Source: Candidatus Thorarchaeota archaeon
GTDB taxonomy: Archaea; Asgardarchaeota; Lokiarchaeia; Sigyniarchaeales; SOKP01
Assembly (NCBI GenBank): GCA_048883045.1
Contig: JBHLRA010000001.1
Coordinates: forward strand, 19,841-83,840
Direction of reading: 5' to 3'
DNA: 64,000 bases
Positions within the stretch are counted from its first letter, which is position 1. Every line of letters begins with the position of its first letter. Positions 3,488 through 34,406 of the stretch are shown here, piece by piece. A program made the translations under genes and the position numbers. A model generated the notes under the pieces. That model saw only the letters and a list, made by a program, of their open reading frames with translations. It was not told the origin of the DNA and searched no databases.

Positions 3488-4240
3488 TTATGTGATTATT
3501 TTCCAATCATCGCTAATTTTAGGGGTTAAAAGTTTTAATTGAAGAGGGGTATAATATTCACTCCAAGGGTGGAAAAATCTTCCTCCTCTAGGTATTATCC
3601 CATATTGATCAACTAAATTTGCAAAGCAGCTATCTACACAATAGATTTGAAAGGCCCCCTGAAGGATAGATAACCAATCAAATATATTATAACCTTCAAC
3701 TTTACCCAATCTAACTATTCCATAATGGTTAGACATTCCACCTATAATTTTATTGAAATCGAAATGCCTTCCATGGCTTCCATCTTCGTGCACAACTATA
3801 TAATTATCATTTTTATTTATTTCCTTAAGAGCCATCAGTTGAGATTCTTTGTCCCTATTTCTCACTATAAAATCATAGAGATCATATTTTGTTGTATAGG
3901 GCAAACCTGCGTGCTTATACTTCCACAAATCAAATGAAAGATTGGTTTCTTTCCAATTTTTGTCCAATAAAGGATTGCCAAAACCTATGGCTAGATCTAT
4001 ATAAGATTGTGTAATATATTCCCAAGATTTGGTTCTTAGCATATGGCCTTTTTCATCTATAGAGCCAATATTATAAATAAACATATGGCTTAGAAAATTA
4101 ACATTTTTAAAAACATCAATATACTCATTAGCTATGGGCCAAGTAACATCCAGCCCTTGGGAATAATAATAATATGCTATAGGCAAAACTAAAAGGAGAT
4201 CCCCCAAACGTCCTGGTTGGATTATTGTTATATTTCCCAT
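3488..4240 (-). CDS. GT9 (heptosyltransferase)-like glycosyltransferase
   Basis: N-terminal IIQPGRLGDLLLVLPIA and C-terminal IYCVDSCFANLV resemble the GT9 motifs (RxGD..LxxP; DSGxxHLA). Confidence 0.55.
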   Translation of the reverse strand: MGNITIIQPGRLGDLLLVLPIAYYYYSQGLDVTWPIANEYIDVFKNVNFLSHMFIYNIGSIDEKGHMLRTKSWEYITQSYIDLAIGFGNPLLDKNWKETNLSFDLWKYKHAGLPYTTKYDLYDFIVRNRDKESQLMALKEINKNDNYIVVHEDGSHGRHFDFNKIIGGMSNHYGIVRLGKVEGYNIFDWLSILQGAFQIYCVDSCFANLVDQYGIIPRGGRFFHPWSEYYTPLQLKLLTPKISDDWKIIT

Positions 4241-4306
4241 ATAGTTGCCTCCTCTAATTTCTATCTATTAACATTCGATCTAAAGATTTCCTAAATTTTT
4301 GTTCTG

Positions 4307-5185
4307 TCATTTTAGTCCTAGATTACTCAATACTTTGTTGAAAAATACTGGGTCACTCCAAGACATATTAAGGGTGTTTGCTCTTATAGGATGGATTCTT
4401 TTATTGTATATATCTGAATATAAAAAATAAGGCAATTTGTCAAAAAATAAAATTTTCTTTTTACCATTTTCCATTTCAAATCTATAAGAATAATCTTGTA
4501 TATGATCTGCGATAGATGAATTGATATTCCAATCAAATATTGATAATTTATTTGTTTCCTGTATTGGATAAGCCAAATCACAAGTAAGCGGAAAATAAGT
4601 ATTTACAAATTCTCTTATATAAGACATATCTGCCAAATTATATAATTTCCCAACTTTTCTTTTCTCTTCTATTATATTTTTGTGATAATTTTTAAAATCA
4701 TCATTTTTTCTTAATTCATAAATCATAGAACACAGCATCTCTAATTTTCTTATACTATTTACATAAGTTACACATCCGCTTATACCATTAATAATATAGT
4801 ATAAATTTGATAATCTAATTTCTGACAAGTCTCTACATATTATTGTGTCGGAATCAAAATACCAACAAGATTTTATTCTTTTTTTAGCCATAATTTCTCT
4901 TAATCTAGGCCAACGCATTATATTGAAATGGTGTTTAGGATATGCCCACTTAGGAGCAGATCCTATGTGAGCATAATTGTCTTTTAAATCTTTAAAATTA
5001 CTTCCTTTCCCATTATAATCCTCATAATAATCAAATATAGCCCCGGATTGTATGGCTATATCTTTATTTGAATCATCCCCGAATAGGAATATATTTGTAT
5101 CAGGGTTGAAAACCTTTGCACATTTCAAGGTATGTTCTAGATACCAGCTGTGCTCAAAATGCATAAATATTATAGGAGCTTTCAT
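4307..5185 (-). CDS. putative glycosyltransferase (DxD type)
   Basis: 292 aa; WYFDSDTIICRDL is DxD-like; embedded among glycosyltransferase/methyltransferase genes; family not recognised. Confidence 0.35.
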   Translation of the reverse strand: MKAPIIFMHFEHSWYLEHTLKCAKVFNPDTNIFLFGDDSNKDIAIQSGAIFDYYEDYNGKGSNFKDLKDNYAHIGSAPKWAYPKHHFNIMRWPRLREIMAKKRIKSCWYFDSDTIICRDLSEIRLSNLYYIINGISGCVTYVNSIRKLEMLCSMIYELRKNDDFKNYHKNIIEEKRKVGKLYNLADMSYIREFVNTYFPLTCDLAYPIQETNKLSIFDWNINSSIADHIQDYSYRFEMENGKKKILFFDKLPYFLYSDIYNKRIHPIRANTLNMSWSDPVFFNKVLSNLGLK

Positions 5186-5294
5186 AGCTTTTCAAATCTC
5201 CTCATCAAATAAAAAGTTTTATTCCAGGTCCAGCCAGAGGCTATATTTACACAGAATATAATAATATAAACAATAAACAAGAAGGTGAATTTTA

Positions 5295-5999
5295 TTAGAT
5301 TATATATTTTTTCAACCATATTTTCCTCTTAAAGACGCTATAGCCATTGCGCAAATTTAGATTTCTGACCACTAGCTCATAAGAATGATTATTCCCATCC
5401 AATATATTGTCAGAAAAATAGTTCTTAATACCGCTAACGTCATCTAGCACTATCCATTCAGCTAGATAAATAAGTTTCATGCAATCTGCATTACCAGTAA
5501 AAGCTGAACCATCTAAGATTGCTAGATCAAAGTTTTTTATATCATTGTGATTTTTGATGGCCTCTATCCCGTGGAAAGGGATTCTATTGGATTTTATATA
5601 CTCTATCTCTTCCCTTCTCCATCTCAAAACTTCTTCTAGAGGATAATTATTGAGGTTGGTTCTAACGTCTTTATAAAAACATTCTATCTGCCTTTCATCT
5701 AAATAATCATCCAGCCCAACAGAACAATAATTGTAAGGAATTATGAATGAGTTTTCTTTGTGATTTTTGGCCAATTCTGCACATCTAATTTTAGAGGCCT
5801 CTATACAAAATACTTTAGCTTTTTCTTCTAATCCGGTCGCTTTAATCCCATCCACAACAGCTTGAGTACTCCCTTTACCATCAGATGAGCCTATTTCTAT
5901 AATAGTTGTCATACTGTGATCACAGACTATATGGGCTATTTGATTGTATAATTCATCTTGAAATATTTCTGGAGGAATTAATTTATCTAATGTTGGCAT
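5295..5999 (-). CDS. class I SAM-dependent methyltransferase (O-methyltransferase-like)
   Basis: IIEIGSSDGKGST (motif I) and DLAILDGSAF resemble the Methyltransf_24/TylF-like pattern. Confidence 0.6.
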   Translation of the reverse strand: MPTLDKLIPPEIFQDELYNQIAHIVCDHSMTTIIEIGSSDGKGSTQAVVDGIKATGLEEKAKVFCIEASKIRCAELAKNHKENSFIIPYNYCSVGLDDYLDERQIECFYKDVRTNLNNYPLEEVLRWRREEIEYIKSNRIPFHGIEAIKNHNDIKNFDLAILDGSAFTGNADCMKLIYLAEWIVLDDVSGIKNYFSDNILDGNNHSYELVVRNLNLRNGYSVFKRKIWLKKYII

Positions 6000-6573
6000 C
6001 GTCGTTCTCTACTTTCCAAGTTTTATTGTTTTTGATTCCGCTAATAGCACATTCATTGACTCCAAATAAATCAGCTAATTGTTTTTGGGATATTAGCCCT
6101 TTACTTTTAGCCTCTTTATATTCTTTTGAATCCAATATATCTCTTATCCAATTGGCTGTCATTTGTGTTAGTTTACAATTAGGATGATTTTCTCCTTTTA
6201 TTTTTTCTGATATTTTGTTTTTGTGCTCTTTAGATAATTTTCTGCCATACATAGGATTCTTTTCCCCTTTGACTAATTCTGATTTTCTTTTTATTTGTTC
6301 TTTTGAAAATATATATTTATACATAGGATTATTTTCTTTTTTAAAATCAGCATGATTATTGGACATTTTTCGCTTAGTTTCTTCTGAGATTATTTTCCCT
6401 TTTTGATGTAATTTAGCATGTTCACTATGTGACATCTTCTGTAAATTATCTGGATCATCATTGCCGTGATCAAAATCCTTATGATGGATATCATATCCAT
6501 CACCTTTAATTATTGGATCATCTAGATGATGATCATTCCAAATCTTATGATATTTTTTAACATTTCTTGACAT
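5983..6573 (-). CDS. HNH homing endonuclease with NUMOD-like repeats and C-terminal HTH
   Basis: YHKIWNDHHLDDPIIKGDGYDIHHKDFDHGNDDPDNLQKMSHSEHAKLH; repeats ENNPMY/EKNPMYGRKLSKEHK/GENHPN; LISQKQLADLFGV. The ATG directly follows the TGA of the upstream gene, and the 3' end overlaps the next gene by 17 nt. Confidence 0.85.
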   Translation of the reverse strand: MSRNVKKYHKIWNDHHLDDPIIKGDGYDIHHKDFDHGNDDPDNLQKMSHSEHAKLHQKGKIISEETKRKMSNNHADFKKENNPMYKYIFSKEQIKRKSELVKGEKNPMYGRKLSKEHKNKISEKIKGENHPNCKLTQMTANWIRDILDSKEYKEAKSKGLISQKQLADLFGVNECAISGIKNNKTWKVENDDANIR

Positions 6574-8166
6574 TCATCTTATTCCTGCTAAATATCTTTT
6601 TATTTTCAAAATATTTTCTTCTCTTTCTTTTTTCTTCTTCTCTGAATGAAATAGTTCGTGATCTGCATTTATAATCCTGTGTCTATCTGGAAGTTTTTCT
6701 AAATAATTCTCATCTGGCTTAGCCCTTTTCAAAACTATACTATGATGATACGTTATTATATGTTTGAAAAACTCAAAACATCCCGCCTTTGTACAAATCT
6801 CATGGAGGTCTGAATCCATCCAAGTCTGCTTATAATCTGTGTCCAAATATCTCCCCAAAATATCGTGTAATATTTTATTGGTAAAAAATAGCGTTGATAA
6901 TTTTCTGAAATTATGTCTGCTTTCGTTTGTGCGAATAAAAAAAGGTTTGTTCTGATTTTTCTTAAATTCCTCTACAATTATTGAATCCCAAGAATAAGTC
7001 TCAAAACTGCAATCATCTCCAAAAAACCCGAAACAATAAGGATTATATTCAAGAGATTTATCATATAGCATGTTCCAGAATTTGGAATAGTTTATATCTT
7101 CCCCTCTTCTCTTTCTAGGTTCATAGTCCCAAAATATATTTTCAGTTAATTCTTTTTTCAAAGTTTGCAGCATAGATTCTGAAATTTTATCACTTCTAGG
7201 TATAAGAAAAAAGAAATATATCCGACTTGGAAAGCTTGATTTTTCTAGAGCTGATTCCACTAATCTCTTAATCCCTTCTGGCCTTTTCTTAGAAGGAGTC
7301 AAAATTGCTATCTTCTTTTTCCTACTATCATCACTTCTTATTGTATTTCTGTGCCGTCTAGAGGCTTGAAAATGCTCAATAACAGCATTATCCTTATTTC
7401 TTACTATATCATATATTTGGCAATAAGATAAAGGCAAAGGCCTTATCATTATTTTATCTTTTAAAGATTTAACGCAATCTAGGAGCAGATTTTGATCAAT
7501 TGTTCTATTGTCCTCTAAACATTTCATCTTCCACATTTCCAGCAATCTAAAGGCTCCATCAGTGTAATTAAAATATATAGTGCCAGATAGTAACCGATCC
7601 ATGATGAAATTAACCCCAGGGAATAGCTCTTTGTCTCTATCTCGCATAGAATTAGGGAAGTAAGCTGCAAAATCTATATCTTTCATTTTTTCAAATAGCT
7701 TGGGTTGTTTTTTAACTATCGCATCTGCATCAACACAAACAACTGGTTTACCTGACATCTTTAAGACTCTTTCTATTAACACAGGCTTATATTGAGTATT
7801 CATAACCCACCCACCCAAATCCTCTATGCCTTCTATATAATAATCAAGTTTTAGAGTCTCTAAGGATTTTATAAGATTTTTAACTTCTTTCTCATATGGA
7901 GTGTCTATTGTGAAAAATGAGACCATAACAAATTTAGATTTAGGGTCTATCCCGGTGGTTAATATTTTGGGCTCTTTTCTTACCGAAGGCTTGGGAATTA
8001 AATTTTGATTAGGAGGAGGTTGGGCTGGTTGAGTAAAAACTTCTTTTCTTTGTTCTAATACCCTTTTTTTTACTCTCTTTAAAACTTCTCTTTGTTGAGG
8101 CCAAGAAAACTGGCTATAATTTTTAGGTAAATGTTTTTTTATTGTTTCAAATAGGTCATTATCCAT
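6574..8166 (-). CDS. two-domain nucleotide-sugar glycosyltransferase-like protein
   Basis: 530 aa; basic/Pro-rich N-terminus. GT-A-like domain with PVVCVDADAIV (DxD). Second Rossmann-like block KKKIAILTPSKKRPEGIKRLVES. Confidence 0.5.
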   Translation of the reverse strand: MDNDLFETIKKHLPKNYSQFSWPQQREVLKRVKKRVLEQRKEVFTQPAQPPPNQNLIPKPSVRKEPKILTTGIDPKSKFVMVSFFTIDTPYEKEVKNLIKSLETLKLDYYIEGIEDLGGWVMNTQYKPVLIERVLKMSGKPVVCVDADAIVKKQPKLFEKMKDIDFAAYFPNSMRDRDKELFPGVNFIMDRLLSGTIYFNYTDGAFRLLEMWKMKCLEDNRTIDQNLLLDCVKSLKDKIMIRPLPLSYCQIYDIVRNKDNAVIEHFQASRRHRNTIRSDDSRKKKIAILTPSKKRPEGIKRLVESALEKSSFPSRIYFFFLIPRSDKISESMLQTLKKELTENIFWDYEPRKRRGEDINYSKFWNMLYDKSLEYNPYCFGFFGDDCSFETYSWDSIIVEEFKKNQNKPFFIRTNESRHNFRKLSTLFFTNKILHDILGRYLDTDYKQTWMDSDLHEICTKAGCFEFFKHIITYHHSIVLKRAKPDENYLEKLPDRHRIINADHELFHSEKKKKEREENILKIKRYLAGIR

Positions 8167-8857
8167 CGATAGTATCCTTTTTCATAATCCACATTTGATT
8201 GTAAAATTTTTTATAATTTATATCTATTTTTCTTAAATTAAAACCAAATTTTTTTACAATTGACATCAATTTTTCTTTAGAATAAGTATTTACGTAAGCC
8301 CCTTTATTCTTTCCATCTCTATCATTCCAAGTAAATTTTTCCTTTTTGGGGGGTTTAAACCAGGTGACTATGGCTAATTCTTTGGTAGTTCTAAGTAAAT
8401 TTGCAAAATAATTATATCCATCATAAGGATGCTGATGTTCCAAAGTATGTCTAGTATATATTATATCAAATTCTTTATCCTGATGCCTGCTAGTTGCTGG
8501 ACACAAATCCCAAAAAGACCCAACGCTAAAACAAGAATTATAATTATTGAATTTCTTTCTAGCATATTTAACAAACTGCTCTGTTATTTCCCAGCCCTTA
8601 TAAATTATATGCCCCATCTCGTGAAGATATTGGAAACAATGTTCAAAATCATAACCGTTACCGAACCCTATTTCAAGAAAAAGTTTTTTGTTTTTATTGC
8701 CTACATAATCTCTTATAATATAATAGGCCTCTTCTCGACCATAAGCATAATTATGGGCTAAGAATTTACACCATTCTTCATAGGATATTTCATTCAGCCA
8801 AGGGGCTTTAAAATCGTGATTGAAAATATTAGAGTTTTTTATAGTTTCTATTTTCAT
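8159..8857 (-). CDS. class I SAM-dependent methyltransferase
   Basis: LFLEIGFGNGYDFE (motif I), FDIIYTRHTLEHQ (motif post-II/III). Confidence 0.7.
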   Translation of the reverse strand: MKIETIKNSNIFNHDFKAPWLNEISYEEWCKFLAHNYAYGREEAYYIIRDYVGNKNKKLFLEIGFGNGYDFEHCFQYLHEMGHIIYKGWEITEQFVKYARKKFNNYNSCFSVGSFWDLCPATSRHQDKEFDIIYTRHTLEHQHPYDGYNYFANLLRTTKELAIVTWFKPPKKEKFTWNDRDGKNKGAYVNTYSKEKLMSIVKKFGFNLRKIDINYKKFYNQMWIMKKDTIDG

Positions 8858-11383: not shown

Positions 11384-11659
11384 TTATTTAGATATATTAG
11401 CCATAGCCATTAATTTATCTATATCGCATTTTTTGGCCAATAAAAACATTTTATTGAAAAATTTCTTTGCTTTTTCAAAAATCAAATCAGCTTTAATTAC
11501 ACATCAAGCATATTCTTTTTTATCATCAATAGTTAAATTATTAAGTTTAGCGAATGCTTTTATTCTATTTCCTCCGTTGCTGACAAATTCTTTTAGGAAA
11601 TCTAATAAATATTGCTCTTCTTTTATTTTTTCTAAATACATTCTATCTAAATTATCCAT
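11384..11659 (-). pseudogene. TerS N-terminal (HTH)-like paralog interrupted by an in-frame TGA
   Basis: SD GGAGGG + ATG 11659. MDNLDRMYLEKIKEEQYLLDFLKEFVSNGGNRIKAFAKL..DDKKEYA-TGA(11504-11506)-CVIKADLIFEKAKKFF... Aligns with TerS FLEEYIKNGGNAIQAYGIV..DQKEYLRAGVKAAQMM on both sides of the stop. Confidence 0.4.
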
Positions 11660-11719: not shown

Positions 11720-12784
11720 TTAAAGTTCTTTGAAATTGATATCATATTTCTCAGATAATTGATTAAGGGTCAACACTCTTCCAGTTTTAATATCGCTAAA
11801 ATTTTCAAAATCCAGTTCTCCTTTCTTATAGGCTGCATATCGGTTAGGCCGCAAAACTTCTTTTTTAAACAGCTCATTTTGACGTTCAAACCAATCTCTA
11901 TATTTTTCAGATGCCTCAGTTTTTCCGTATCTAGTTTCATATTTTACTTTGCCAGTCCTAGTCACTCTTTTACTAATTATTTCTTTATAAGGCCTTTCTA
12001 TTCCTTCTAGATCATATTTAGTCAGCGCCATAAGAAGACATCGGCAAAGCCAGTGGGATGGCGGTGTTATTCCAAAAGCCACAATATCTTTATGCACTTG
12101 ACCATCTAGATGCCCACAAAGCAAACAAGTTCGATGATCTAGCGTCGCTATCCATCTATAACCTATAATAAAATCCTCATAACTTTTATACACTTCTTGA
12201 AGAGATTTATTGCTTACATCCATTATTGAAGTTCTAGCGATGCGAGTTGATTCAATGATAGAAAGATTGGTGGCTGTTTTTATATTCTTGGCCATAGTTT
12301 GCATGCTGTGGCCTTGAATAAGGCCATTCAATAGTGCTCTTTTAGAATTCTTAAAATGATTTCTAAAACTTTTATTGAATAGATCAGATAAAAGAAAATC
12401 TCCTATTTTAGGTTTAAGCATTCTTTTAAGAGCTTTGGCTGGTAGTCCTAAATTAGGAACCGATCTGGATATTAAATCTAGGCCCTCTTGTTTCAGAAGA
12501 GCATTGGCAACATTGTAATATTCTAGTTTAGCTACATCACCCAAAGAATCTAATATTTTTCCATCTATCTCTTCGTGAACTTGTTTTAATATATCAATAG
12601 TTTGGGCTAGAACATATTTATAATGGCTCCGGCTTATCTCATTTATCCAAGGTTTGGCCTCTAACTTTTTAAGGATTTCAATTTGTGATCTTCTGAGGCT
12701 GTTGATGATTTCTTGGTCTAAACTATTTCCAAATTCTTCCAGAAAATGCCGATTTTTAAGAATAAAATCCATTAAAGAAGACAT
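11720..12784 (-). CDS. head morphogenesis protein, SPP1 gp7 / Mu F family
   Basis: WIATLDHRTCLLCGHLDGQV...PPSHWLCRC is the Phage_Mu_F signature; located downstream of the portal. Confidence 0.85.
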   Translation of the reverse strand: MSSLMDFILKNRHFLEEFGNSLDQEIINSLRRSQIEILKKLEAKPWINEISRSHYKYVLAQTIDILKQVHEEIDGKILDSLGDVAKLEYYNVANALLKQEGLDLISRSVPNLGLPAKALKRMLKPKIGDFLLSDLFNKSFRNHFKNSKRALLNGLIQGHSMQTMAKNIKTATNLSIIESTRIARTSIMDVSNKSLQEVYKSYEDFIIGYRWIATLDHRTCLLCGHLDGQVHKDIVAFGITPPSHWLCRCLLMALTKYDLEGIERPYKEIISKRVTRTGKVKYETRYGKTEASEKYRDWFERQNELFKKEVLRPNRYAAYKKGELDFENFSDIKTGRVLTLNQLSEKYDINFKEL

Positions 12785-13578
12785 ATATTATCTGTTCTCC
12801 ATTGCATTATACGTTTTAAAGCTATTCGATAATATTCCTTGACTACTTCTATCCCAATATATTTTCTATTAGCCTTTAAAGCCATTGCACAAGTCGTACC
12901 AGATCCACACATAGGATCTAAAATTATATCTTTAGGATTAGACCAAGAAATAATGTGATCATATGCTAATTGTTCAGGAAATGGAGCTGGATGACATTTG
13001 CCTTTTTGTTTCTGTGGTGATTGCTCCCATATATTAAATCTTTGAGATAATTCATTTATAATCATTTTTTTATTTACAGGTTTTATACTTCCATCTGCAT
13101 TTCGTATAGTGCCAGAAACAGTTTTACCTCCATGTTTTGTTTTTCTATCTTTTATTGGATTGAATATTTTTATATTTCCTTTGGATAAAATAAACATATA
13201 ATCGAACACAGGACAATATCTTTTTTTTAATGCACCAACAGCTGAAAATCCGCCTTTATTCCATATCATAGTATCATGTAAATTGAAACCTATTTCTTTA
13301 AAATATAATGCTTGTTTAAAACTTGTTCCTGTTTTAGAACCCTTAATGATTGCGTCTCCAACAATCCAAACTACAACCCCTCCAATTTTAGTAATACGAA
13401 ATAATTCTTGCGCTATTGGCTCAAATCTAAACTTATCTAAATTATTTTTATAAGTTCTTAAATTATCATAAGGTGGAGATGTGACAGTTAAATCAATACT
13501 ATTATCTGGAATATATTTCATCATATCCAAACAATCGCCTAATATTATTCTGTTTATAAAATCTTCTGGATAGTCCAT
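12772..13578 (-). CDS. DNA methyltransferase (beta-class N4-C or N6-A)
   Basis: LTVTSPPYDNLRTY (motif IV, SPPY) is N-terminal to ILDPMCGSGTTCAMA (motif I). Confidence 0.85.
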   Translation of the reverse strand: MDYPEDFINRIILGDCLDMMKYIPDNSIDLTVTSPPYDNLRTYKNNLDKFRFEPIAQELFRITKIGGVVVWIVGDAIIKGSKTGTSFKQALYFKEIGFNLHDTMIWNKGGFSAVGALKKRYCPVFDYMFILSKGNIKIFNPIKDRKTKHGGKTVSGTIRNADGSIKPVNKKMIINELSQRFNIWEQSPQKQKGKCHPAPFPEQLAYDHIISWSNPKDIILDPMCGSGTTCAMALKANRKYIGIEVVKEYYRIALKRIMQWRTDNICLL

Positions 13579-15331: not shown

Positions 15332-17740
15332 CTAATATATCAAAATATCAGAAGTATCTATAACATCAGCGCTCTTTCTTAATTTCCTGAACATGCAAGC
15401 ATAGCGTACTTCGTCGCAATTCGAAACAATTATATTTCCTTGAACTGCGAATAGATGGCTCCCTTTTGTAGTTAAACAATAAACATCTGACTTTCCTATA
15501 CAATCAATTGATTTTATTTTTTTTCCTATTTTCTCCGCTGAGTTTTGCTCCGCAATCTCTTGAACAAGTTTTAGTCTTTCCATATTTGATTGTTTCGAAT
15601 TCTTTGCCACATATTGAGCATATTCTTGTTTCATGATCAAGTTTATTACTTCTTCTATATTTTGATTTGCAAACATTGGAGCAAAATTTTTGGAATGGAA
15701 ACCCTTCAAATTCATTCTTACATTGTAAACAATTTTTAATTTTTCTTGCAAGTATTTTATCTTTGCAATTTGATTGATATTGGCGTTTATGCCATTCTTT
15801 GCCTTCATCGCTCTTATGCCATTCTGCTGCCTTAATCCTAGCTTTGCTGCTTGCATTGAAAAAAGCTGAATTATCTTCTCTAAGATTAATATGTAATTTA
15901 GAATGTTGGCTTTGTGACATTGCTTCCAAATTTTCGATATTATTATTTGATCTATCAAAATCTTTGTGGTGGATGTGAAATCCATTTGGTATATTCCCAT
16001 TATGAAATTTCCAAACTGTTCTATGTAAAATATTCCCATTTTTTTTTCTAAAATATCTTCCTTGTAAGTAATATCTAATTCCATTAAATTCTTGTATTGT
16101 TTCACTAATGATAATGGTTTGCATTCATCCTCTCCTTTTAAAGAATAACAATAATCTCCTATTTTTAAATATTTAGCTTGTATTAGATTATAATTTATAT
16201 CTAAAAATTTATGATCTAATGTAGATTCAACTTTTGTTCCATCCTCAAACGATATGCGTATTAAATCTTGATTTCTTCTAGTCATTCTGCAATTATAATA
16301 ATCTGTATAAAAATTTCCAACTGTTATTATTTTCCCTTCAGTTCCGACTAAATTTTTTATGGGCTTAAATCCCTCTAAAGTTTTAACCAATGTGTTAGGG
16401 GATAAACATATATGATCTTCCTGATGAGGGGCTATATCTTCTAAATTTTTAGCATCTCTTTGCAGATAGGGTATAGTCCTTTTAAAATCATAACACCATT
16501 CCATTACCAGCAATCCTGGCCCAAATTCTTTATTTCCTATCAATCTATTACGGACTTGAGCCCATCCTGGAACTCTGCTTTTATCAGATTCAACAAACAA
16601 ATCTCCACCCATTTGCTTATGGATACTTTCTCCTCCTCTTTCCTCAAATATCTGATTATCTGCTGGTCCCTTTCTTATATTAAGACTGCCCCATTGTTTT
16701 TCTCTTTCTCTTATTTCTTTTCCTATCTGTTCATTAGACATGTAAAGACCGGATATTTTCCCGTTATCTCTTTTACATCCATACCATTCTGCAAATCTTA
16801 TCAAGGTTCCCCTTGGGTAGTATAAGCCATTTGGAGCTACATTCCCATCGCTTTCACACCACCAGCCAACTGAAAAAGGACTTGCACTGCCCCAATCAAA
16901 ACTTCTAAAACAAAACCAATCTGAAGGAGGCACAAAACATTGAGAGATTGGGATAACATTTTTTATTTCATTCCAAGCATCAGCAAAAAACGAACCAATC
17001 TTTACATCCCAAGAACCAAATATCCAAGATTTCTTAAGTTCTTCATCATTTAAACCAAACAAAGTCTTACGATAAGCTTTACCTTGATTATCCATAAATG
17101 GTATATTTTCCAACATATTACCAAAGATTGCTATTCTCTTTTCTCCCTGATTATTCTCAATAGGAACTCCCCAGCGCCCAACTGGATCAACAAAATATCC
17201 TTTGACCTCTGCTCTTCCTACACCCCAAGTATTGGCAGTTGATCTTATTCTGGGAAAGACTGATATTGGAGAAGATGCAAAGTTACAGCTCTTCATGAGC
17301 TCATAAGCCTCTAGATTAGGCCATTCACAAAGCTCATCCCAACCTATCCAGGGGAGAGCATGGCCATGAAAATTTCCATAATCTTTTTCATTATCCATAT
17401 AGGCAAATTTTAAAGTTTCTCCGTCTGGAAAATACCAAGTGCCTTCACTTTTGTTATATTCAGCTTTAAGAAATATTTTTTTATATAGCGTTTGGCTTTC
17501 AAATACTAAATCTCGGAGTTGGGGAAAAGTTCGCCTAAATAAAACACCTCTCCAAATAGGTCCATAACCTTTTCCTACATCTTGTAAAAAATCAACAAGT
17601 AAACTAGCACTTTTGCCAGCCTTTCTTGTTCCGAAATATAATGCCTCTTTAAATGGACAAGATAAAAAAAGAGATTGGGAGCCTGGATTAGGGGTCCACG
17701 CTAATGTATTTTTTTTATTATTTTGTTTTAAGATGTCCAT
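15332..17740 (-). CDS. terL: terminase large subunit precursor containing an intein
   Basis: Walker A FGTRKAGKSAS, Walker B IGWDEL. Nuclease motif EDHI|...|CDEVRYACM is split by a 330-codon insert. Confidence 0.9.
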   Translation of the reverse strand: MDILKQNNKKNTLAWTPNPGSQSLFLSCPFKEALYFGTRKAGKSASLLVDFLQDVGKGYGPIWRGVLFRRTFPQLRDLVFESQTLYKKIFLKAEYNKSEGTWYFPDGETLKFAYMDNEKDYGNFHGHALPWIGWDELCEWPNLEAYELMKSCNFASSPISVFPRIRSTANTWGVGRAEVKGYFVDPVGRWGVPIENNQGEKRIAIFGNMLENIPFMDNQGKAYRKTLFGLNDEELKKSWIFGSWDVKIGSFFADAWNEIKNVIPISQCFVPPSDWFCFRSFDWGSASPFSVGWWCESDGNVAPNGLYYPRGTLIRFAEWYGCKRDNGKISGLYMSNEQIGKEIREREKQWGSLNIRKGPADNQIFEERGGESIHKQMGGDLFVESDKSRVPGWAQVRNRLIGNKEFGPGLLVMEWCYDFKRTIPYLQRDAKNLEDIAPHQEDHICLSPNTLVKTLEGFKPIKNLVGTEGKIITVGNFYTDYYNCRMTRRNQDLIRISFEDGTKVESTLDHKFLDINYNLIQAKYLKIGDYCYSLKGEDECKPLSLVKQYKNLMELDITYKEDILEKKMGIFYIEQFGNFIMGIYQMDFTSTTKILIDQIIISKIWKQCHKANILNYILILEKIIQLFSMQAAKLGLRQQNGIRAMKAKNGINANINQIAKIKYLQEKLKIVYNVRMNLKGFHSKNFAPMFANQNIEEVINLIMKQEYAQYVAKNSKQSNMERLKLVQEIAEQNSAEKIGKKIKSIDCIGKSDVYCLTTKGSHLFAVQGNIIVSNCDEVRYACMFRKLRKSADVIDTSDILIY
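15419..16408 (-). mobile_element. intein in the TerL nuclease motif (codons 445-774)
   Basis: Block A CLSPNTLVKTLEG (Cys1 at 16406-16408), block B TLDHKFL, blocks F/G VYCLTTKGSHLFAVQGNIIVSN, +1 Cys at 15416-15418. Confidence 0.8.
15504..16124 (-). CDS. HNH homing endonuclease nested in the intein in a different reading frame
   Basis: 206 aa; HIHHKDFDRSNNNIENLEAMSQSQHSKLH; zinc ribbons CLQCKNEF..FCSNVC and CSICGKEF..CSRDC. Own SD AAAGGAGAGG 4 nt before the ATG. Frame offset 2 relative to TerL. Confidence 0.8.
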   Translation of the reverse strand: MQTIIISETIQEFNGIRYYLQGRYFRKKNGNILHRTVWKFHNGNIPNGFHIHHKDFDRSNNNIENLEAMSQSQHSKLHINLREDNSAFFNASSKARIKAAEWHKSDEGKEWHKRQYQSNCKDKILARKIKNCLQCKNEFEGFPFQKFCSNVCKSKYRRSNKLDHETRICSICGKEFETIKYGKTKTCSRDCGAKLSGENRKKNKIN

Positions 17741-17767: not shown

Positions 17768-18292
17768 TTAGACATCTATTGATCTCATTTCATCAGTTAT
17801 TTCTCTGACTTGGTCTAATTTTTTTAGCCAATTATCTTCGTCAGCCATTATGCCTGGTACTATTAAAACATTGTTTTGTTTTGTAACATTTATATCAATT
17901 CCAGGTTTAGGGAATAAATTTCTAAGCTTGCATAGAGTTTCTAGATAATTATGGCGAGCATTGAAATCGGGAAGCTGTATGCCTGATTTATCAAATTTGT
18001 AGGCCGCCAATCCTTCAAAAATCAATTCTGCTATTTTTTTTAGCGTAAGCCCTTGAGCTTCTAACTCTTCATCAATGGTTGGTTTTATTTTTTTCATCAT
18101 CTGAGCAGCTTTGACGCCAGCTCGAAGATATTCTTTTTGATCTCGTAAATCTAGTCCTTTAACTATGCCATAAGCTTGTATTGCATTGCCGCCATTTTTT
18201 ATATATTCTTCTAAAAATTTAAGTTCAATGGGCTTCAAACTCTTTCTATTTCTCTTAGATTCATCTAAAACAACAATATCTTTATTGTCCAT
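17768..18292 (-). CDS. terS: terminase small subunit
   Basis: LKPIELKFLEEYIKNGGNAIQAYGIV is a Terminase_2-like HTH; directly upstream of terL. Confidence 0.75.
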   Translation of the reverse strand: MDNKDIVVLDESKRNRKSLKPIELKFLEEYIKNGGNAIQAYGIVKGLDLRDQKEYLRAGVKAAQMMKKIKPTIDEELEAQGLTLKKIAELIFEGLAAYKFDKSGIQLPDFNARHNYLETLCKLRNLFPKPGIDINVTKQNNVLIVPGIMADEDNWLKKLDQVREITDEMRSIDV

Positions 18293-26537: not shown

Positions 26538-26573
26538 TGTGTGTTTGATACGTTAATATTAAAGAGGGAAAAA

Positions 26574-27092
26574 ATGAAAAAAAATGTAGCATTGATTGGG
26601 ACTTTTAGAAAAGATAGTAAAGGCTTGGTAAATATTTTTAATGAATTAAGAGATTTGGGATATAATATTACAACGCCTCGAAATCCAATTCCTGATAAAA
26701 ATGAAAATGGATTTGTTTATATGAAAGGGGAAACAATATTTACTCCTGACTCTATAGAAGAAAGAGCTTTATTCAATATTAAAAAATCGGATTTTGTTTG
26801 GTTTTTTTCTCCTAATGGTTATATAGGATATACTACTTTAGCTGAAATAGGATATGCTTTATCTATTGGAAAAAAAATATTTTCTAATTCTTTTATAGTG
26901 AATAAAAGTTTAAATGGGTTAATTAATATTGTTGAAAATGCAAAATGTTTAAATGATTTTAAAATGAGATCAAATATGATTAATGATATTTATCTATCTG
27001 AGAAATTTTATAAATTATCATTTGATAGGAAAATAGAAGATTTACGTAAAATTGAATTATTGATTGGTGAAATAAATAAAAAATTGGAATGA
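26574..27092 (+). CDS. nucleoside 2-deoxyribosyltransferase-like protein
   Basis: Start moved to ATG 26574 (SD AGAGGGA). VALIGTFRKD...DFVWFFSPNGYIGYTTLAEIGYALSIGKKIF resembles the NDT/DUF4406 fold pattern. Confidence 0.45.
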   Translation: MKKNVALIGTFRKDSKGLVNIFNELRDLGYNITTPRNPIPDKNENGFVYMKGETIFTPDSIEERALFNIKKSDFVWFFSPNGYIGYTTLAEIGYALSIGKKIFSNSFIVNKSLNGLINIVENAKCLNDFKMRSNMINDIYLSEKFYKLSFDRKIEDLRKIELLIGEINKKLE

Positions 27093-27113
27093 ACTAAAAT
27101 TAGAAGGAGTAAA

Positions 27114-27950
27114 TTGATGAGATGCTGCTTTACTATAATTTTGAATGGTCTTCATCATTTAGCTGCTAATGGTCAAGCTGAATTTATAGCTAATAATTTT
27201 GATCGGTGGTATATAGCTGAAGGGGCCTCCTTTAGTCAGGGCTCAACAAAATGGTGTAAACCGATGCTAGATAAGTATCATAATTGTGGAAGATCAATAG
27301 ATGGAACTTGGCTATATTTAAAACAACTTACTGATAGGTATCCAAATATTATTTTGGTCAATAATATTTTGGTTTGCCAAAAAGAATATATGGATAAGGG
27401 TTTTTGGAAATCAAAGGATGCTCAAGTTAATGCCTGTATAACTTCCTTAAAATTACAAAAGGTCCAAGAATGTTATCTGTGGCAGATAGATGTTGATGAA
27501 CAATGGTCATTAGAAAATATAGAAAAATCAGAAAAAGAACTTTATCAGAATGATTGTAAAGTTGGTTTATTTAAATGTAATTATTGGGTTGGGCCAGGAT
27601 TGGTGGCAAAGGGAACTTGGGGAGAAGGCGATAATGAAAATGCTTACAAAAGACTTTGGAAATGGGAAGGAGAATGGTTTAAATCTCATGAACCCCCAAT
27701 ATTGGGGGATGGAGACCTTACAGAAATAACACTCCCTTATCGTTTCAATCATTATGCTTATTACTATGATCAAGATGTTAAATTTAAAGATGATTGGTAT
27801 GGCGGGCACGAAGGAATATATTACCGATGGAAATGGCTTCAAAGAGAGGCTAAAGACAAGAAAGTTGGTCATATGTGGCCAATAAGTGTTTTGCTTGATC
27901 CTAATACTTATTGGGGTAGAACAGATACTATAATCACTAAAGTTGGGTAA
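27114..27950 (+). CDS. GT-A (GT2-like) glycosyltransferase
   Basis: CFTIILNG..., RSIDGT, WQIDVDEQW (DxD). Confidence 0.45.
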   Translation: MMRCCFTIILNGLHHLAANGQAEFIANNFDRWYIAEGASFSQGSTKWCKPMLDKYHNCGRSIDGTWLYLKQLTDRYPNIILVNNILVCQKEYMDKGFWKSKDAQVNACITSLKLQKVQECYLWQIDVDEQWSLENIEKSEKELYQNDCKVGLFKCNYWVGPGLVAKGTWGEGDNENAYKRLWKWEGEWFKSHEPPILGDGDLTEITLPYRFNHYAYYYDQDVKFKDDWYGGHEGIYYRWKWLQREAKDKKVGHMWPISVLLDPNTYWGRTDTIITKVG

Positions 27951-27952
27951 AT

Positions 27953-28357
27953 ATGAAATCAAAAAAAATATCTTTGGCTAAGCGTAAGATTAAATTTTGG
28001 GAAAGGCGTATATTATCAATAGATCAAAGGCTTGAGAGAAGTAAGGATGGCGTTGAAGAAATAAACGATATCATAAGCAATCCTCCTATAATAGCAGGAA
28101 TTAGAATAAAAATAGATTTGGATTGCCTACTTAGCCTTTCTAAAAAATCTGAATATTTGCTTAAACAATATCAAATTGATTATGGCAAAAGGCAATTATT
28201 TGTTCAATATAGAAGTAAATGGAAAAGTAAATATCTTGAACTTATAGACCCAAGAACTCCTGAAGAAATAGACAAAGGGTGGGATAGTTTTTGGGATCAG
28301 ATTAAAGGTAAAAGAAAGCCTGAAATAAAACTGGATGGCTTTAAAGGCAAATTATGA
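27953..28357 (+). CDS. hypothetical protein
   Basis: 134-aa basic ORF coupled to the flanking glycosyltransferase genes. Confidence 0.55.
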   Translation: MKSKKISLAKRKIKFWERRILSIDQRLERSKDGVEEINDIISNPPIIAGIRIKIDLDCLLSLSKKSEYLLKQYQIDYGKRQLFVQYRSKWKSKYLELIDPRTPEEIDKGWDSFWDQIKGKRKPEIKLDGFKGKL

Positions 28358-29130
28358 AATTATCTTTTATTGTCCCATATAAACACAATTCTGAAAGGCT
28401 TGGACTTTTAGGTGCTACAATAAATAATCTTCCCAAATGGAACAATATAGAAATTTGCGTTTCTGAGCTTGGGGAAAGACCTTGCTTTGAAAACACTTAT
28501 GTCTATAAGATATTGTCTAAATTTTATAATTTAAAATATTGTTTTAATTATTATGGTGGAATATTTAATAGAGCTTTAGCCATCAATATAGGCGCTAAAA
28601 GCTTGGCTACAAATAAAATTTTTTGTCTTTTGGATGGAGATATAGTTTTTAAATATCAAGAAAACACTATATGTGATATTTTAACATATGGCTTCCAACC
28701 TTGTGCAGGTTTTAATTCTATGTATTTTATGAATCCAGAAGAGACTAAAGATTATTTGATAAAAGGAGTTTATCCTTCTAGTCATCCTAGTCATAAGATG
28801 AGATTTTCTAAGCCTGGAGGACTGGCTGGGGGTCTGATAATTATGTCTAAAGATATATTTATGAAAATAAAAGGAATCCCAGAGATGTTCAAAGGGACTT
28901 GGGGCAATGATGATAATGCTCTTTGGTATAAGCTTCAAGCTTATGGTTATTATTTTCGATCTATACCTAGATGTTTTTATCATCTCCATCATTTGCACAA
29001 GACCGAGAAAGATGCAGATATTATGTCTAAGATAGATGAAATAAGAAATTGGACTATTTTAGATTGGAAAAAATATGATAATGAGATAGGCAATAATTGG
29101 GGAATATATGATAATAAAAAATACAAATAA
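28354..29130 (+). CDS. glycosyltransferase (GT2 / galactosyltransferase C-terminal-like)
   Basis: SFIVPYKHNSERL, LLDGDIVF (DxD), GGLIIMSKDIFMKIKGIPEMFKGTWGNDDNALWYKL. Confidence 0.65.
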   Translation: MKLSFIVPYKHNSERLGLLGATINNLPKWNNIEICVSELGERPCFENTYVYKILSKFYNLKYCFNYYGGIFNRALAINIGAKSLATNKIFCLLDGDIVFKYQENTICDILTYGFQPCAGFNSMYFMNPEETKDYLIKGVYPSSHPSHKMRFSKPGGLAGGLIIMSKDIFMKIKGIPEMFKGTWGNDDNALWYKLQAYGYYFRSIPRCFYHLHHLHKTEKDADIMSKIDEIRNWTILDWKKYDNEIGNNWGIYDNKKYK

Positions 29131-29150
29131 AAAGGTTTGGAGGAACTAAT

Positions 29151-29486
29151 ATGAGAGAAATGACTTTTAGCATATATGAGGAATTTACAAAAACAACTGA
29201 TGTTTTTGTTGATGATGTCAATAGGATGGTATGTGTAGTTTTGGGACTTAATGGAGAGGCTGGTGAAGTTGCAGAAAAATTCAAAAAAATATTTAGAGGT
29301 GATGTCAAATTTGATAAAAATTCTAAAGAGCAAATAGCTTTGGAACTTGGCGATGTTTTATGGTATCTGAGTCGATGCGCAAGTGTAATTGATTATACAT
29401 TAGAGGATATAGCTAAGATGAATATTGAAAAGTTAAAAAATAGATTGCATTTAAATAAAATAAAAGGATCAGGAGACACAAGATAA
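29151..29486 (+). CDS. mazG: MazG-like nucleotide pyrophosphohydrolase
   Basis: GLNGEAGEVAEKFKKIFRGD ... ELGDVLWYL. Confidence 0.85.
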   Translation: MREMTFSIYEEFTKTTDVFVDDVNRMVCVVLGLNGEAGEVAEKFKKIFRGDVKFDKNSKEQIALELGDVLWYLSRCASVIDYTLEDIAKMNIEKLKNRLHLNKIKGSGDTR

Positions 29487-29491
29487 ATAAA

Positions 29492-30049
29492 ATGTATATT
29501 GCAATGGATTTAGATGAAACTTTAATTGATTGGATCAATAAACCAGAAAAAGTAGCAGCCCAAAGGCTTGGAGTGAAGGAACCTAAAAGGCTTGATTACT
29601 TTTATAAAAGGGTTCCTATAAAACTTAGGGCAGAAATAATGTCTTTATTTGAAGATTTGGAATTTATGTCTATGAAAAATCTTACCTATGATGTTTTAGA
29701 CAAACTTGCTCTTATGAAATGGAAAGAGAAAGGACATATTTTGACAGTCATAACCTCTAGAGATAAAAGCTTGGAGATGAGAAAAGAGACTGAAAGAATA
29801 ATCAAAGAATGGTTCCCCGAAATAGATAATCTCATAATAGTAAAGCATGGTGTGGATAAGATAGGTTATTTTAAACGCATGAAGCCTGATGTTTGGATAG
29901 ATGATCGCCCGGATATAGCACATATGGCGATGGAAATGGACATAAGAACTTTTCTTATAGACAAATCATACAATAATGATCCCTTTTGGGCAGAGCTGCA
30001 AAGAATACAATCTATATATCAATTGTGGGCGAAAGGAATAATAAAATGA
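29492..30049 (+). CDS. HAD-family 5'(3')-deoxyribonucleotidase-like protein
   Basis: IAMDLDETLIDW (DxDxT), VITSRD, WIDDRPD. Confidence 0.7.
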   Translation: MYIAMDLDETLIDWINKPEKVAAQRLGVKEPKRLDYFYKRVPIKLRAEIMSLFEDLEFMSMKNLTYDVLDKLALMKWKEKGHILTVITSRDKSLEMRKETERIIKEWFPEIDNLIIVKHGVDKIGYFKRMKPDVWIDDRPDIAHMAMEMDIRTFLIDKSYNNDPFWAELQRIQSIYQLWAKGIIK

Positions 30050-30525
30050 ATAAAATTGTAGCAGATAAAATGGATTTTATTGAAATGACCTTATGTATTA
30101 TTTTCTGCAAATGCGGTAGACGGGATAAAATTTTGTTAGGCAAAAAGGCAAAAGGGCTAGGCAAAGGCTATTGGAATGGCTTTGGGGGTAAGATAAAGCC
30201 AGGAGAAAGTATTAAAGAAGCTAATACTAGAGAAGTTTTTGAAGAAACCGGGATAGAACTATATGAAGATGATACATTTTTGATGGGGCTTAATAGATTT
30301 ATATTCCCTGAGAATAAAACTATATTGGAAGTTCATGTTTTTGTTGCGCATATTAGGGAATTGATAAACCCTAAACTAAATGCAGAATTTGATGGATTTG
30401 AATGGTTTGATAAAGGCCAATTGCCTTATGAAAATATGTGGTCAGATGATAGGTATTGGGTGCCATATCTTTTTGAGGAAAAATTTTCGAAGGATTTTAT
30501 ATTATGGATAGCAGCAACAATCTAA
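30046..30525 (+). CDS. NUDIX hydrolase, MutT/MTH1-like
   Basis: Start at ATG 30046 (ATGA overlap). KGLGKGYWNGFGGKIKPGESIKEANTREVFEETGI is the Nudix box with an MTH1-like preamble. Confidence 0.85.
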   Translation: MNKIVADKMDFIEMTLCIIFCKCGRRDKILLGKKAKGLGKGYWNGFGGKIKPGESIKEANTREVFEETGIELYEDDTFLMGLNRFIFPENKTILEVHVFVAHIRELINPKLNAEFDGFEWFDKGQLPYENMWSDDRYWVPYLFEEKFSKDFILWIAATI

Positions 30526-30576: not shown

Positions 30577-30936
30577 ATGACGGTATATGATCCAAATGGA
30601 ATTCCTATACTTGGGAAAGAGGATGATGTAAAGATTAAGATAGAAGAATTGAGCAGAAATTTGATGATAGCTAGAGGATTAATTCATCAGCTTCAAGAGC
30701 AGGTGGAGCTTCTGAAGTCAAGCAATACAAATATTTTATGCTTTTTATTCTCTCTTATGAAAAAAACAGACAATAATCGCTTTAGAGTTCCGATTAAAAA
30801 ACTTGAATCTTTAAGGTCTGAATTTTTGAGCCAAAAGATAATTCTTAAAACTTATCAAGATAAGGCTAAAAATGTAGTTATATATCGAGAAGATGTTAAG
30901 CCGGAAAAGGATAATGAAAGTGAAGCCAAAAAATAA
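30577..30936 (+). CDS. coiled-coil hypothetical protein
   Basis: Start at ATG 30577 after AAAAGGAGA. Confidence 0.5.
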   Translation: MTVYDPNGIPILGKEDDVKIKIEELSRNLMIARGLIHQLQEQVELLKSSNTNILCFLFSLMKKTDNNRFRVPIKKLESLRSEFLSQKIILKTYQDKAKNVVIYREDVKPEKDNESEAKK

Positions 30937-31450
30937 CAATAATGCGTTGGTAGAAAATAATATAGGATTGGTATATCATACTATAAAAAGATGTTTTAAT
31001 TTTAAAATTAAAGATTTGTCTAGCCTTAAGTTGACTAAAGATGATCTTTATCAACAGGGCAAATTAGGCCTTATTGAGGCCAGTCAAAGATATGATGAAA
31101 GGCGAGGTAAATTTAGCACTTTTGCTTGTCGATTGATTAGAGATTATATTTATAAGATGATTAAGGATGGATATAAAAATTCTTTTGTCCCTTTGCTAAT
31201 AGATATTCCTGATTACAACTCTATAGAAAAAGCAGAAATGATGATAGATTTTGAGCGATGTTGCAAAAAATATTTGAAGCAAAAAGATATTAATATAGTC
31301 TGTGATCATATCTTTGAGGGCTTGACTTTCAAAGAAATATTTTTGAAAAACGATATGGAAAATGAAATGCAAGCTTTTAGAATTTATAATGAAAGTATTC
31401 AAAAAATTAAAAGACAGATTTGCATAGATTTACATAGAAATAATTCATAA
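30914..31450 (+). CDS. sigma-70 family RNA polymerase sigma factor
   Basis: Region 2: LYQQGKLGLIEASQRYDERRGKFSTFACRLIRDYI; region 4-like EGLTFKEIF...IYNESIQKIKRQ. The start could be 30893 or 30914. Confidence 0.7.
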   Translation: MKVKPKNNNNALVENNIGLVYHTIKRCFNFKIKDLSSLKLTKDDLYQQGKLGLIEASQRYDERRGKFSTFACRLIRDYIYKMIKDGYKNSFVPLLIDIPDYNSIEKAEMMIDFERCCKKYLKQKDINIVCDHIFEGLTFKEIFLKNDMENEMQAFRIYNESIQKIKRQICIDLHRNNS

Positions 31451-34219: not shown

Positions 34220-34272
34220 GGTCTTTGTGTGAATAGGATCTTAGACCTGAAAATGGCTGGGTCTTTTATAGA

Positions 34273-34328: not shown

Positions 34329-34406
34329 GATTTTAAAAATAGAATCATTTGTGTATACTTGATAGACTCTGTAAGAGATGGGCGTTAGCGGGGAATTTGC
34401 ATTTGT

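Follow-up and report, generated by a model that had tools for sequence, protein, structure and literature searches.

Phages that encode clusters of several glycosyltransferases together with a methyltransferase, and that build glycans on their virions or on their DNA, are a kind already known. Cluster O mycobacteriophages use an O-methyltransferase and three tandem glycosyltransferases to modify the capsid and the tail tube (PMC11600133), and virion glycosylation operons are presented for Che8, Corndog/cluster O and Myrna (PMC11600133, PMC13445384). Other phage clusters place mono- to tri-saccharides, heptose included, on 5-hydroxymethylcytosine, and the DNA-acting set comprises GT8-like secondary transferases as well as matches to T4 beta-glucosyltransferase, JGT and TarP (bioRxiv 10.1101/2023.12.21.572611). 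Here we describe a cluster of glycosyltransferase and methyltransferase genes in a 64,000-nucleotide (nt) stretch of contig JBHLRA010000001.1 (assembly GCA_048883045.1, positions 19,841 to 83,840; hereafter the window). The cluster occupies 3488-8857 on the minus strand, and its five enzymes, together with a sixth, the GT2-like glycosyltransferase GT278, very probably form one glycan-building pathway. The pathway is split, with the five enzymes in the left arm and GT278 23 kb away in the right arm. New here are the families of the enzymes, for the most part not covered by a Pfam model, the split layout, the wide spread among uncultured phages, the near-absence from sequenced phages and the links to bacterial proteins resembling O-GlcNAc transferase (OGT).

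The cluster consists of six tightly packed open reading frames (ORFs), transcribed in the order P6, P5, P4, P3, P2, P1. The initial annotation, made by eye, had read it as five consecutive enzyme genes. When the ORFs were checked, all five were present on the minus strand with the motifs that had been quoted for them, and all five enzyme calls held up, though Pfam alone fails for P1, P2 and P3; the genes are not consecutive, as a sixth ORF (P4, 5983-6573, 196 amino acids (aa)) sits between P5 and P3. The first gene, P6 (8159-8857, 232 aa, motif LEIGFGNGYDFE), encodes a predicted class I S-adenosylmethionine (SAM)-dependent methyltransferase, and P5 (6574-8166, 530 aa, CVDADAIV) a probable bifunctional glycosyltransferase. 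P3 (5295-5999, 234 aa, EIGSSDGKGST) is predicted to be an O-methyltransferase that uses SAM and falls with Methyltransf_24 / O-methyltransferase family 3, P2 (4307-5185, 292 aa, FDSD) a predicted DxD glycosyltransferase of the GT-A fold, and P1 (3488-4240, 250 aa, RLGDLLLVLPIA and DSCFANLV) a predicted compact GT-B glycosyltransferase whose nearest CAZy family is GT9. The P6 stop and the P5 start overlap by 8 nt and P4 and P3 by 17 nt, P5 and P4 abut, and the remaining gaps measure 47-135 nt. The GC content of the cluster (0.30-0.31) is the same as that of the remainder of the left arm. Over any 19 consecutive residues, the cluster enzymes reach a Kyte-Doolittle maximum of 1.41, against 2.66 in a control protein; they have no predicted membrane segments and are predicted to be soluble. 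Pfam gave no match for P1, P2 or P3, a sub-threshold match for P5 and a passing one for P6, and an NCBIfam scan of all cluster proteins yielded nothing useful. A nucleotide search with the cluster found no match among 50,697 phage records, and no paralogue of a cluster enzyme was found elsewhere in the window, where the HNH gene P4 alone has paralogues.

The mycobacteriophage virion glycosylation operons, which Freeman et al. reportedly described in 2023, resemble the window cluster in combining an O-methyltransferase with several glycosyltransferases, in having soluble enzymes and in having no base-modification genes. Their product consists of O-glycans on the capsid and the tail tube, whereas the window system is known from its genes alone. 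The window differs from them in its families (GT9-like, an unnamed GT8-like family and a two-domain GT-A enzyme), in the division of its genes between two arms and in a host that is not an actinobacterium; tblastn searches with P1, P5 and GT278 against the phage records found no mycobacteriophage. With DNA hypermodification clusters the window shares multiple GT-A and GT-B enzymes that resemble those of lipopolysaccharide (LPS) and teichoic-acid synthesis, a position near packaging and replication genes, and possibly oligosaccharide products, heptose included. The partners in those clusters, a C5-methyltransferase with 5mYOX or a ThyS homologue, were searched for in the window and not found, and the folds here match GT9 and GT8 enzymes rather than T4 beta-glucosyltransferase or TarP. 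A further parallel comes from the eukaryotic virus PBCV-1, whose A064R protein has a glycosyltransferase-glycosyltransferase-methyltransferase arrangement and serves a methylated N-linked capsid glycan. A064R and the window have in common cytoplasmic viral glycosyltransferase domains and a sugar O-methyltransferase that are independent of the host glycosylation machinery, but A064R belongs to a eukaryotic virus and its glycan is N-linked; no sequence match or top fold match between the two was seen.

Structure prediction bore out the GT9-like call for P1. In an AlphaFold2 (AF2) model built from an alignment of homologues (mean predicted local distance difference test (pLDDT) score 95.3), P1 superposes on solved GT9 enzymes, with a GT-B fold of two Rossmann-like domains. 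The best 26 Foldseek matches in the PDB are all GT9 enzymes, and rank 27 is a non-GT9 protein, EspG2. The GT9 matches are led by TibC (5.8e-6) and include the Veillonella GT9 enzyme 3tov (TMq 0.61), WaaC and WaaF; as a group they have E values from 5.8e-6 to 2.7e-4 and TMq of 0.46-0.62, and for the heptosyltransferases TibC, WaaC and WaaF the Foldseek probability is 1.00 at E values from 6e-6 to 1e-4. The pairs G13-D14 and D203-S204 are unchanged in an alignment of 20 P1 homologues, and we take their positions to be those of the catalytic Asp residues of WaaC. Like WaaC, WaaF and TibC, P1 joins the GT-B fold to a G-D ... L-P motif near the N terminus and a D-S/T-G-like motif near the C terminus; unlike them, it has 250 aa rather than 320-390, does not match PF01075 and aligns with modest TM-scores (0.5-0.6). 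By sequence, P1 gave no Pfam match to PF01075 at E<=1, none in PHROG or NCBIfam, and nothing significant in PDB sequence and profile searches, and 0 of 21 P1 homologues carry a precomputed Pfam domain. On its model, P1 is a compact GT-B glycosyltransferase nearest GT9. Its relatives are found at 157 loci in IMG/VR, its sole tblastn matches among the phage records are two huge uncultured-phage records, and the bacterial genomes that carry relatives all belong to Gram-negative lineages. The GT9 likeness of P1, by itself, hints at heptose as a sugar; the window contains no recognised genes for heptose synthesis.

P2, which had been recorded as a DxD protein, is on its AF2 model (pLDDT 96.7) a GT-A DxD glycosyltransferase whose fold is nearest to the retaining GT8 enzymes. 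Foldseek matched it in the PDB to glycogenin (1.3e-5) and to SetA, GlyE, XXYLT1, LgtC and PaTox (E about 1e-5), with TM-scores of 0.35-0.48, and in BFVD to many viral GT-A proteins. Consistent with this assignment, D111-x-D113 is unchanged in 57 sequences of the P2 family. No Pfam model, Glyco_transf_8 included, matches P2, and PDB sequence and profile searches returned nothing significant; in 47 relatives Pfam named none of the P2-like domains, whereas it did name their other domains. The family without a Pfam model is large. From the six homologues of an indexed search, the count rose in an exhaustive profile search to 1086 representative proteins at E<=1e-3, 488 of them at E<=1e-10. Among its members, P2-like domains are fused to GT4, to GT9, to GT41 proteins with tetratricopeptide repeats (TPR-GT41) and to a sulfotransferase with Methyltransf_24.

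The call of a two-domain glycosyltransferase is probably right for P5, a likely two-domain GT-A enzyme as judged from sequence matches and motifs; we infer the functions of the two domains. A leader of about 75 aa precedes domain A (about 78-278, with D146-A-D148) and domain B (about 282-491, with G383-D-D385), and the DAD of the one and the GDD of the other are both invariant in the alignment. Domain A gives a weak Pfam match to Nucleotid_trans (E 0.0057; 17.1 bits, under the cut-off of 22) and a tblastn match to a huge uncultured phage (2e-18). Domain B matches the glycosyltransferase family phrog_14945 (2.5e-10) and, at 24% identity by tblastn, Streptomyces phage genes annotated as glycosyltransferase; in four loci (L072, L077, L049, L090) a protein of about 250 aa consists of this domain by itself and adjoins a P1 homologue. 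PDB sequence and profile searches with P5 found nothing.

For P3, the call of a Methyltransf_24-like methyltransferase is supported at the level of the family. The window protein itself has no Pfam match, and its close homologues by themselves gave nothing, including in a PDB search with the profile of the first alignment. In a 19-member alignment that takes in distant viral relatives, 6 of the 19 sequences match Methyltransf_24 at E<=0.1 (best 1.2e-5) and 1 of the 19 matches Methyltransf_3, and the family profile matches PDB members of O-methyltransferase family 3 with E values between 2.1e-4 and 9e-3, the matches being confined to the N-terminal half (8c9v at 2.1e-4, YrrM at 1.4e-3). The class I SAM-binding motif I (E35-x-G37-x3-G41-x-G43-x-T45) and the acidic residue at the end of strand 2 (E67) are present, and E35, G37, G41, G43, T45, E67, D163, D186, D187 and K192 are invariant across the alignment. 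In an hhalign comparison, motif I and E67 line up with the Methyltransf_24 domain of a P2 relative (P0179). By these sequence matches, P3 is predicted to be an O-methyltransferase family 3 / Methyltransf_24-like enzyme, which probably depends on a metal ion. One P3 homologue (P0030) bears an N-terminal restriction-endonuclease-like domain, MTES_1575 (PF18741, 2.5e-7). P6, called the second class I methyltransferase, passes two Pfam cut-offs, those of Methyltransf_23 (27.6 bits, cut-off 27) and Methyltransf_11 (25.2 bits, cut-off 21.2); its motif LEIGFGxxYD is unchanged in 4 homologues, and its assignment as a class I SAM methyltransferase follows from these sequence matches. In a related locus, L002, the P6 homologue overlaps the P5 homologue as it does in the window.

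That the enzymes work together was part of the initial annotation, and domain fusions and conserved neighbourhoods strengthen it. Gene order in relatives separates a core from an accessory unit. In L005 the order is P6-P5-P3-P2-(extra 238-aa gene)-P1, with gp32-like and RecA genes next; L002, which is without P2 and P3, shows MuF ... P6-P5-(80 aa)-P1, and L001 has portal-MuF ... P6-P5-P3. From these orders, P6-P5-P1 is the core and P3-P2 an accessory unit. The extra gene of L005 lies at 5467-6183, between the P2 and P1 homologues. Fusions tie the accessory enzymes to GT278: a cellular protein of 1176 aa (P0169) contains a P2-like domain (6-235), a P3-like domain (284-503, E 8e-77), a GT278-like domain (512-785) and a GT4 domain. 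Homologues of GT278 accompany P1 in 22 of the 56 non-redundant groups of P1-containing viral loci. At eight loci P1 and GT278 share a single ORF of 850-1354 aa, and at 21 of 22 others they lie on the same strand and at most 11 nt apart. A P3-like gene occurs near P1 in 16 of 80 viral loci, and other frequent neighbours of P1 homologues encode an FkbM methyltransferase, GT11, GT4 and a radical SAM enzyme. Synteny, domain fusions and neighbourhoods are three independent lines that point to a single pathway.

P4 stands outside this pathway. It matches NUMOD3 (2.4e-12) and HNH_3 (1.5e-5) in Pfam, is classed as a homing endonuclease by PHROG as well, and has two paralogues in the window, at 61437-61916 and 44720-45169 (phmmer 1e-41 and 2e-20). 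Because of these paralogues, and because no P4 is present at the P5-P3 junction in L001 and L005, we regard this HNH/NUMOD3 homing endonuclease gene as a selfish, mobile insertion. Two further HNH genes lie just past the left end of the window (L008 11537-12433 and 15273-15785), and the genome is heavily colonised by homing endonucleases.

The initial annotation had counted four more glycosyltransferase-like genes elsewhere in the window. Two could be verified. Two candidates picked by eye as presumably the other two, 35843-36622 and 44089-44739, were not verified, with nothing found for either in Pfam, PHROGs, PDB or phage tblastn. GT278 (27114-27950, plus strand), the GT2-like glycosyltransferase placed in the pathway by fusion and neighbourhood evidence, matches residues 512-785 of P0169 by BLASTP (4e-28), that is, the region between the P3-like and GT4 domains. 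Its homologous domain in L027 has a weak Glycos_transf_2 match, and tblastn of GT278 against the phage records gave no match. The second gene (28354-29130, plus strand) encodes a further predicted GT-A glycosyltransferase, with a Pfam match to Glyco_transf_7C (1.1e-7) and weak PDB matches to beta-1,4-galactosyltransferase and chondroitin synthase. A homologue occurs near P1 in 1 of the 56 locus groups, and it may belong to the pathway on the ground of closeness to GT278 alone. As judged by eye, this gene and GT278 are flanked on the plus strand (26541-30525) by MazG-like (29151-29486), HAD/nucleotidase-like (29492-30049), NUDIX-like (29986-30525) and deoxyribosyltransferase-like (26541-27092) genes, for which Pfam support is weak where they were scanned; such nucleotide-pool-like neighbours could bear on either DNA precursor or sugar-nucleotide metabolism.

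We propose, tentatively and at somewhat under an even chance, that the phage encodes a soluble cytoplasmic assembly line for a methylated O-glycan on protein, probably on virion proteins. In this scheme, of which we infer the order of steps, the sugars, the methylation of the sugar and the acceptor, the enzymes would act in the cytoplasm during infection, on host nucleotide sugars and SAM. The left arm would supply four glycosyltransferase catalytic domains (P5 A, P5 B, P2 and P1) and the methyltransferases P6, which would be translationally coupled to P5, and P3. One of the P5 domains would prime the acceptor, and is the most plausible primer because P5 belongs to the conserved core. The remaining P5 domain, P2, P1 and GT278 would then lengthen the chain by single sugars, directly on the macromolecular acceptor, and P6 and P3 would O-methylate sugar hydroxyls. 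The acceptor residues would probably be Ser/Thr of the phage's own virion proteins, much as in the mycobacteriophage operons. Because P3-P2 is accessory and relatives carry extra genes, the glycan may differ between related phages.

Evidence for a protein acceptor comes from bacterial relatives of P1 and P2. An Azospirillum protein of 1027 aa combines a TPR-OGT region (about 50-760; 8.5e-115 to human OGT in the PDB) with a P1-like domain at 789-1023, and a second fusion of a P1-like domain with TPR-OGT is found in a Tepidisphaeraceae genome (L109). At five further loci (L093, L094, L099, L100 and L113) the 8 kb on either side of the P1-like gene include OGT-like genes. Among P2-like domains, the one in P0161 is joined to TPR-GT41 and those in P0130, P0186 and P0179 to TPR, and a TPR-GT41 gene is located directly upstream at the P0169 locus. 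To our knowledge, GT41 enzymes are exclusively protein glycosyltransferases. The presence of P1- and P2-like domains on or beside TPR-GT41 proteins thus suggests that the two families extend protein-linked glycans. In the same direction, the top fold match of P1, TibC, is a protein heptosyltransferase, and glycogenin, GlyE, SetA and PaTox, all matched by the P2 fold, are glycosyltransferases of proteins. The initial annotation had held that the acceptor could not be inferred from known systems; the TPR-GT41 fusions of P1- and P2-like domains do give a lead, and it points to protein. We consider a protein acceptor evenly balanced, and our confidence in a virion protein in particular falls somewhat short of that. 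In favour of a virion protein, the cluster comes directly after the major capsid gene in L027 and follows portal-MuF in the window, L001 and L002, and the mycobacteriophage genes that modify capsid and tail tube are a precedent (PMC11600133).

Several points weigh against a glycan on virion proteins. The bacterial TPR-GT41 proteins carry P1- or P2-like domains as extra catalytic domains, whereas an OGT-like primer (TPR/GT41) was found neither in the window nor in any of the 80 viral loci; the fusions therefore show what the families are capable of rather than what they do in the phage, and priming in the phage must fall to another enzyme. Nothing in the sequence names the acceptor. The cluster seems to be transcribed with the gp32-like and RecA genes, not with the head genes, because a strong terminator-like hairpin with a 14-bp stem (11133-11102, minus strand), placed between the MuF region and a 220-aa ORF, separates it from MuF; the transcription unit of the glycan cluster may begin at this hairpin. 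A promoter scan of this AT-rich DNA (56 sites observed, 44 +/- 7.6 expected) was uninformative. The right-arm glycosyltransferases stand among genes judged by eye to be nucleotide-pool genes, a setting typical of DNA-modifying phages. An obvious Ser/Thr-rich tail was looked for in the virion proteins and none was convincing, domain A of P5 depends on a Pfam match below the cut-off, and about 14 kb of the 84.6-kb source contig lies outside the data. Finally, an acceptor in the host envelope fits the fold likenesses equally well, since GT9 and GT8 enzymes jointly build the LPS core.

Among the other acceptors, the host envelope fares best, though we consider it unlikely. The enzymes would then work on the inner side of the membrane and alter the cell surface by remodelling a lipid-linked glycan such as the LPS or lipooligosaccharide (LOS) core or teichoic acid, for instance with the benefit of excluding superinfecting phages or of stopping progeny from re-adsorbing to debris. 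P1 is nearest in fold to the LPS heptosyltransferases WaaC and WaaF, LgtC-type GT8 enzymes of LPS/LOS synthesis are among the best 50 fold matches of P2, and the Gram-negative lineages of all bacterial carriers of P1 relatives suit such a role. LPS core enzymes are peripheral and have no membrane segments, in agreement with the soluble cluster enzymes. However, surface conversion is chiefly a trait of temperate phages, and no integrase or lysogeny gene appears among the larger ORFs that were scanned; the replication and recombination gene set fits a lytic phage. Gtr-type seroconversion systems pair a membrane flippase and transferase with a temperate life style, and the cluster holds no such membrane segment and no Gtr-, Wzx- or Wzy-like membrane component. 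Moreover, where domains of the P1 and P2 families are fused in bacteria, their partners are OGT-like protein glycosyltransferases and not LPS enzymes.

Sugar hypermodification of DNA, in which a methylated oligosaccharide on a modified base would evade restriction, is less probable again. Phage GT-A/GT-B clusters that build such glycans are known, and lie near terminase or structural genes (bioRxiv 10.1101/2023.12.21.572611). Here the cluster adjoins gp32-like and RecA genes, and the right-arm glycosyltransferases lie amid MazG, NUDIX and nucleotidase genes recognised by eye, where Pfam matches are weak. The enzymes that would prepare the base were not found. The initial annotation saw no hydroxymethylase, and this was borne out: Pfam scans of window ORFs of at least 200 aa detected no C5-methyltransferase, no TET/JBP enzyme and no thymidylate-synthase-type hydroxymethylase. 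The 6 kb leftward of the window and the flanks of L002 likewise showed none, and a phmmer query with E. coli ThyA found no relative in the window or in the 80 related loci; the ThyA probe served as a screen only, and TET-like enzymes were screened in the window alone. The sole DNA methylase is of the N6_N4 type, and L001 and L002 have no counterpart. The best 50 PDB fold matches of P1 do not include T4 beta-glucosyltransferase, nor those of P2 TarP, matches of the kind that marked the DNA-acting enzymes in the earlier study. The JGT match of that study is one to the AlphaFold database (bioRxiv 10.1101/2023.12.21.572611), and the fold searches for P1 and P2 considered here were made against the PDB. 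A broader proposal carries a comparably low probability. By this proposal the P1-GT278 pair would mark a widespread module of environmental, non-actinobacterial phages (157 IMG/VR loci) that lacks an OGT-like primer and places methylated, possibly heptose-containing glycans on an acceptor other than the three customary ones in their known forms, for example on DNA without a hydroxymethyl-pyrimidine or on host proteins, for takeover or receptor masking.

Glycosylation of host proteins as such, whether of flagellin or pilin to mask receptors or of cytosolic factors in a toxin-like takeover, is quite improbable. It draws on the same OGT-fusion evidence for a protein acceptor and on the resemblance of the P2 fold to the toxin glycosyltransferases SetA, PaTox and YeGT. 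L002, in addition, has another candidate protein-modifying enzyme nearby, an ADP-ribosyltransferase-like protein of 384 aa (5879-7033, weak match to PF01129) encoded between MuF and the glycan cluster. Six or seven enzymes, however, exceed the needs of a toxin-type modification with a single sugar, and no candidate target can be named; we know of no phage that carries out multi-enzyme glycan synthesis on host proteins. That the genes are neighbours by chance, or decayed remnants without a joint pathway, is very improbable: L002 lacks P2 and P3, a homing endonuclease is inserted within the cluster and 3 of the 5 proteins have no Pfam match, but the catalytic motifs are invariant across homologues, the structure models of P1 and P2 are of high confidence, and fusions and conserved adjacency recur across dozens of independent loci.

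The genome that carries the cluster, read as a phage in the initial annotation, is that of a tailed phage. Its structural genes encode an intein-bearing TerL, a portal of the DUF4055 family, MuF, scaffold and tape measure proteins, an HK97-type major head protein (34806-35813) and a tail protein (45185-46135, a 'minor tail protein' in PHROG and possibly the tail tube), and its replication and recombination genes a helicase, a primase, the gp32-like protein and RecA. Beyond the window, the analysis covered about 6 kb of the contig on the left and 3 kb on the right. The contig is labelled Candidatus Thorarchaeota at NCBI. An Asgard archaeal virus was rejected on account of an Amidase_3 endolysin (40592-41182, 4.7e-21), a sigma-70 region 2 protein (30893-31450, 9e-9), a bacterial-type RecA (489-1535) and the gp32-like protein, and by PolA in relatives; a search of the literature for Asgard viruses carrying such genes found nothing specific. 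Because the endolysin, the sigma-70 region 2 protein and the bacterial-type RecA are encoded, the 84.6-kb source contig is probably a mis-binned bacteriophage.

Other features of the genome were noted in passing. The intein of TerL (15332-17740, minus strand) is an Intein_splicing match in Pfam at residues 487-774, and the TerL of L002 has a faint LAGLIDADG match. The N6_N4 DNA methylase gene (12772-13578, minus strand, 7.6e-39) is inserted between portal and MuF, a position at which L001 and L002 have none. Past the major head gene, the stretch 34000-39600 (plus strand) has a raised GC content (0.38-0.40 against about 0.30) and contains three ORFs without a family match: 35843-36622, with distant relatives among Caulobacter jumbo phages; 36946-38805, whose 619-aa product contains an internal duplication; and 38793-39542, whose product has an N-terminal hydrophobic segment. 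Duplications within the genome were seen twice more: a 134-aa ORF (50592-50996) resembles the N terminus of the adjoining 500-aa tail-region ORF (50996-52498; 2.5e-57), and a 51-aa ORF beside MuF (11504-11659) resembles a 174-aa ORF upstream of TerL (17768-18292; 1e-7).

Glycans on the virions of mycobacteriophages blunt antibody recognition, and those on the DNA of other phages block restriction. The locus described here indicates that uncultured phages of Gram-negative-type communities commonly carry a different and largely Pfam-invisible enzyme set. Its components are a GT9-like enzyme of compact size, a GT8-like family that has no name and more than 1000 representatives, an enzyme resembling O-methyltransferase family 3 and a GT2-like partner, and its profiles and structure models could be used to annotate hundreds of phage genes now labelled hypothetical. 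The bacterial fusions of TPR-OGT with P1-like domains and of TPR-GT41 with P2-like domains make the question of the acceptor testable, and the gene set is defined for heterologous reconstitution. If the acceptor does prove to be the virion, glycosylation of phage particles would reach well past the actinobacteriophages.

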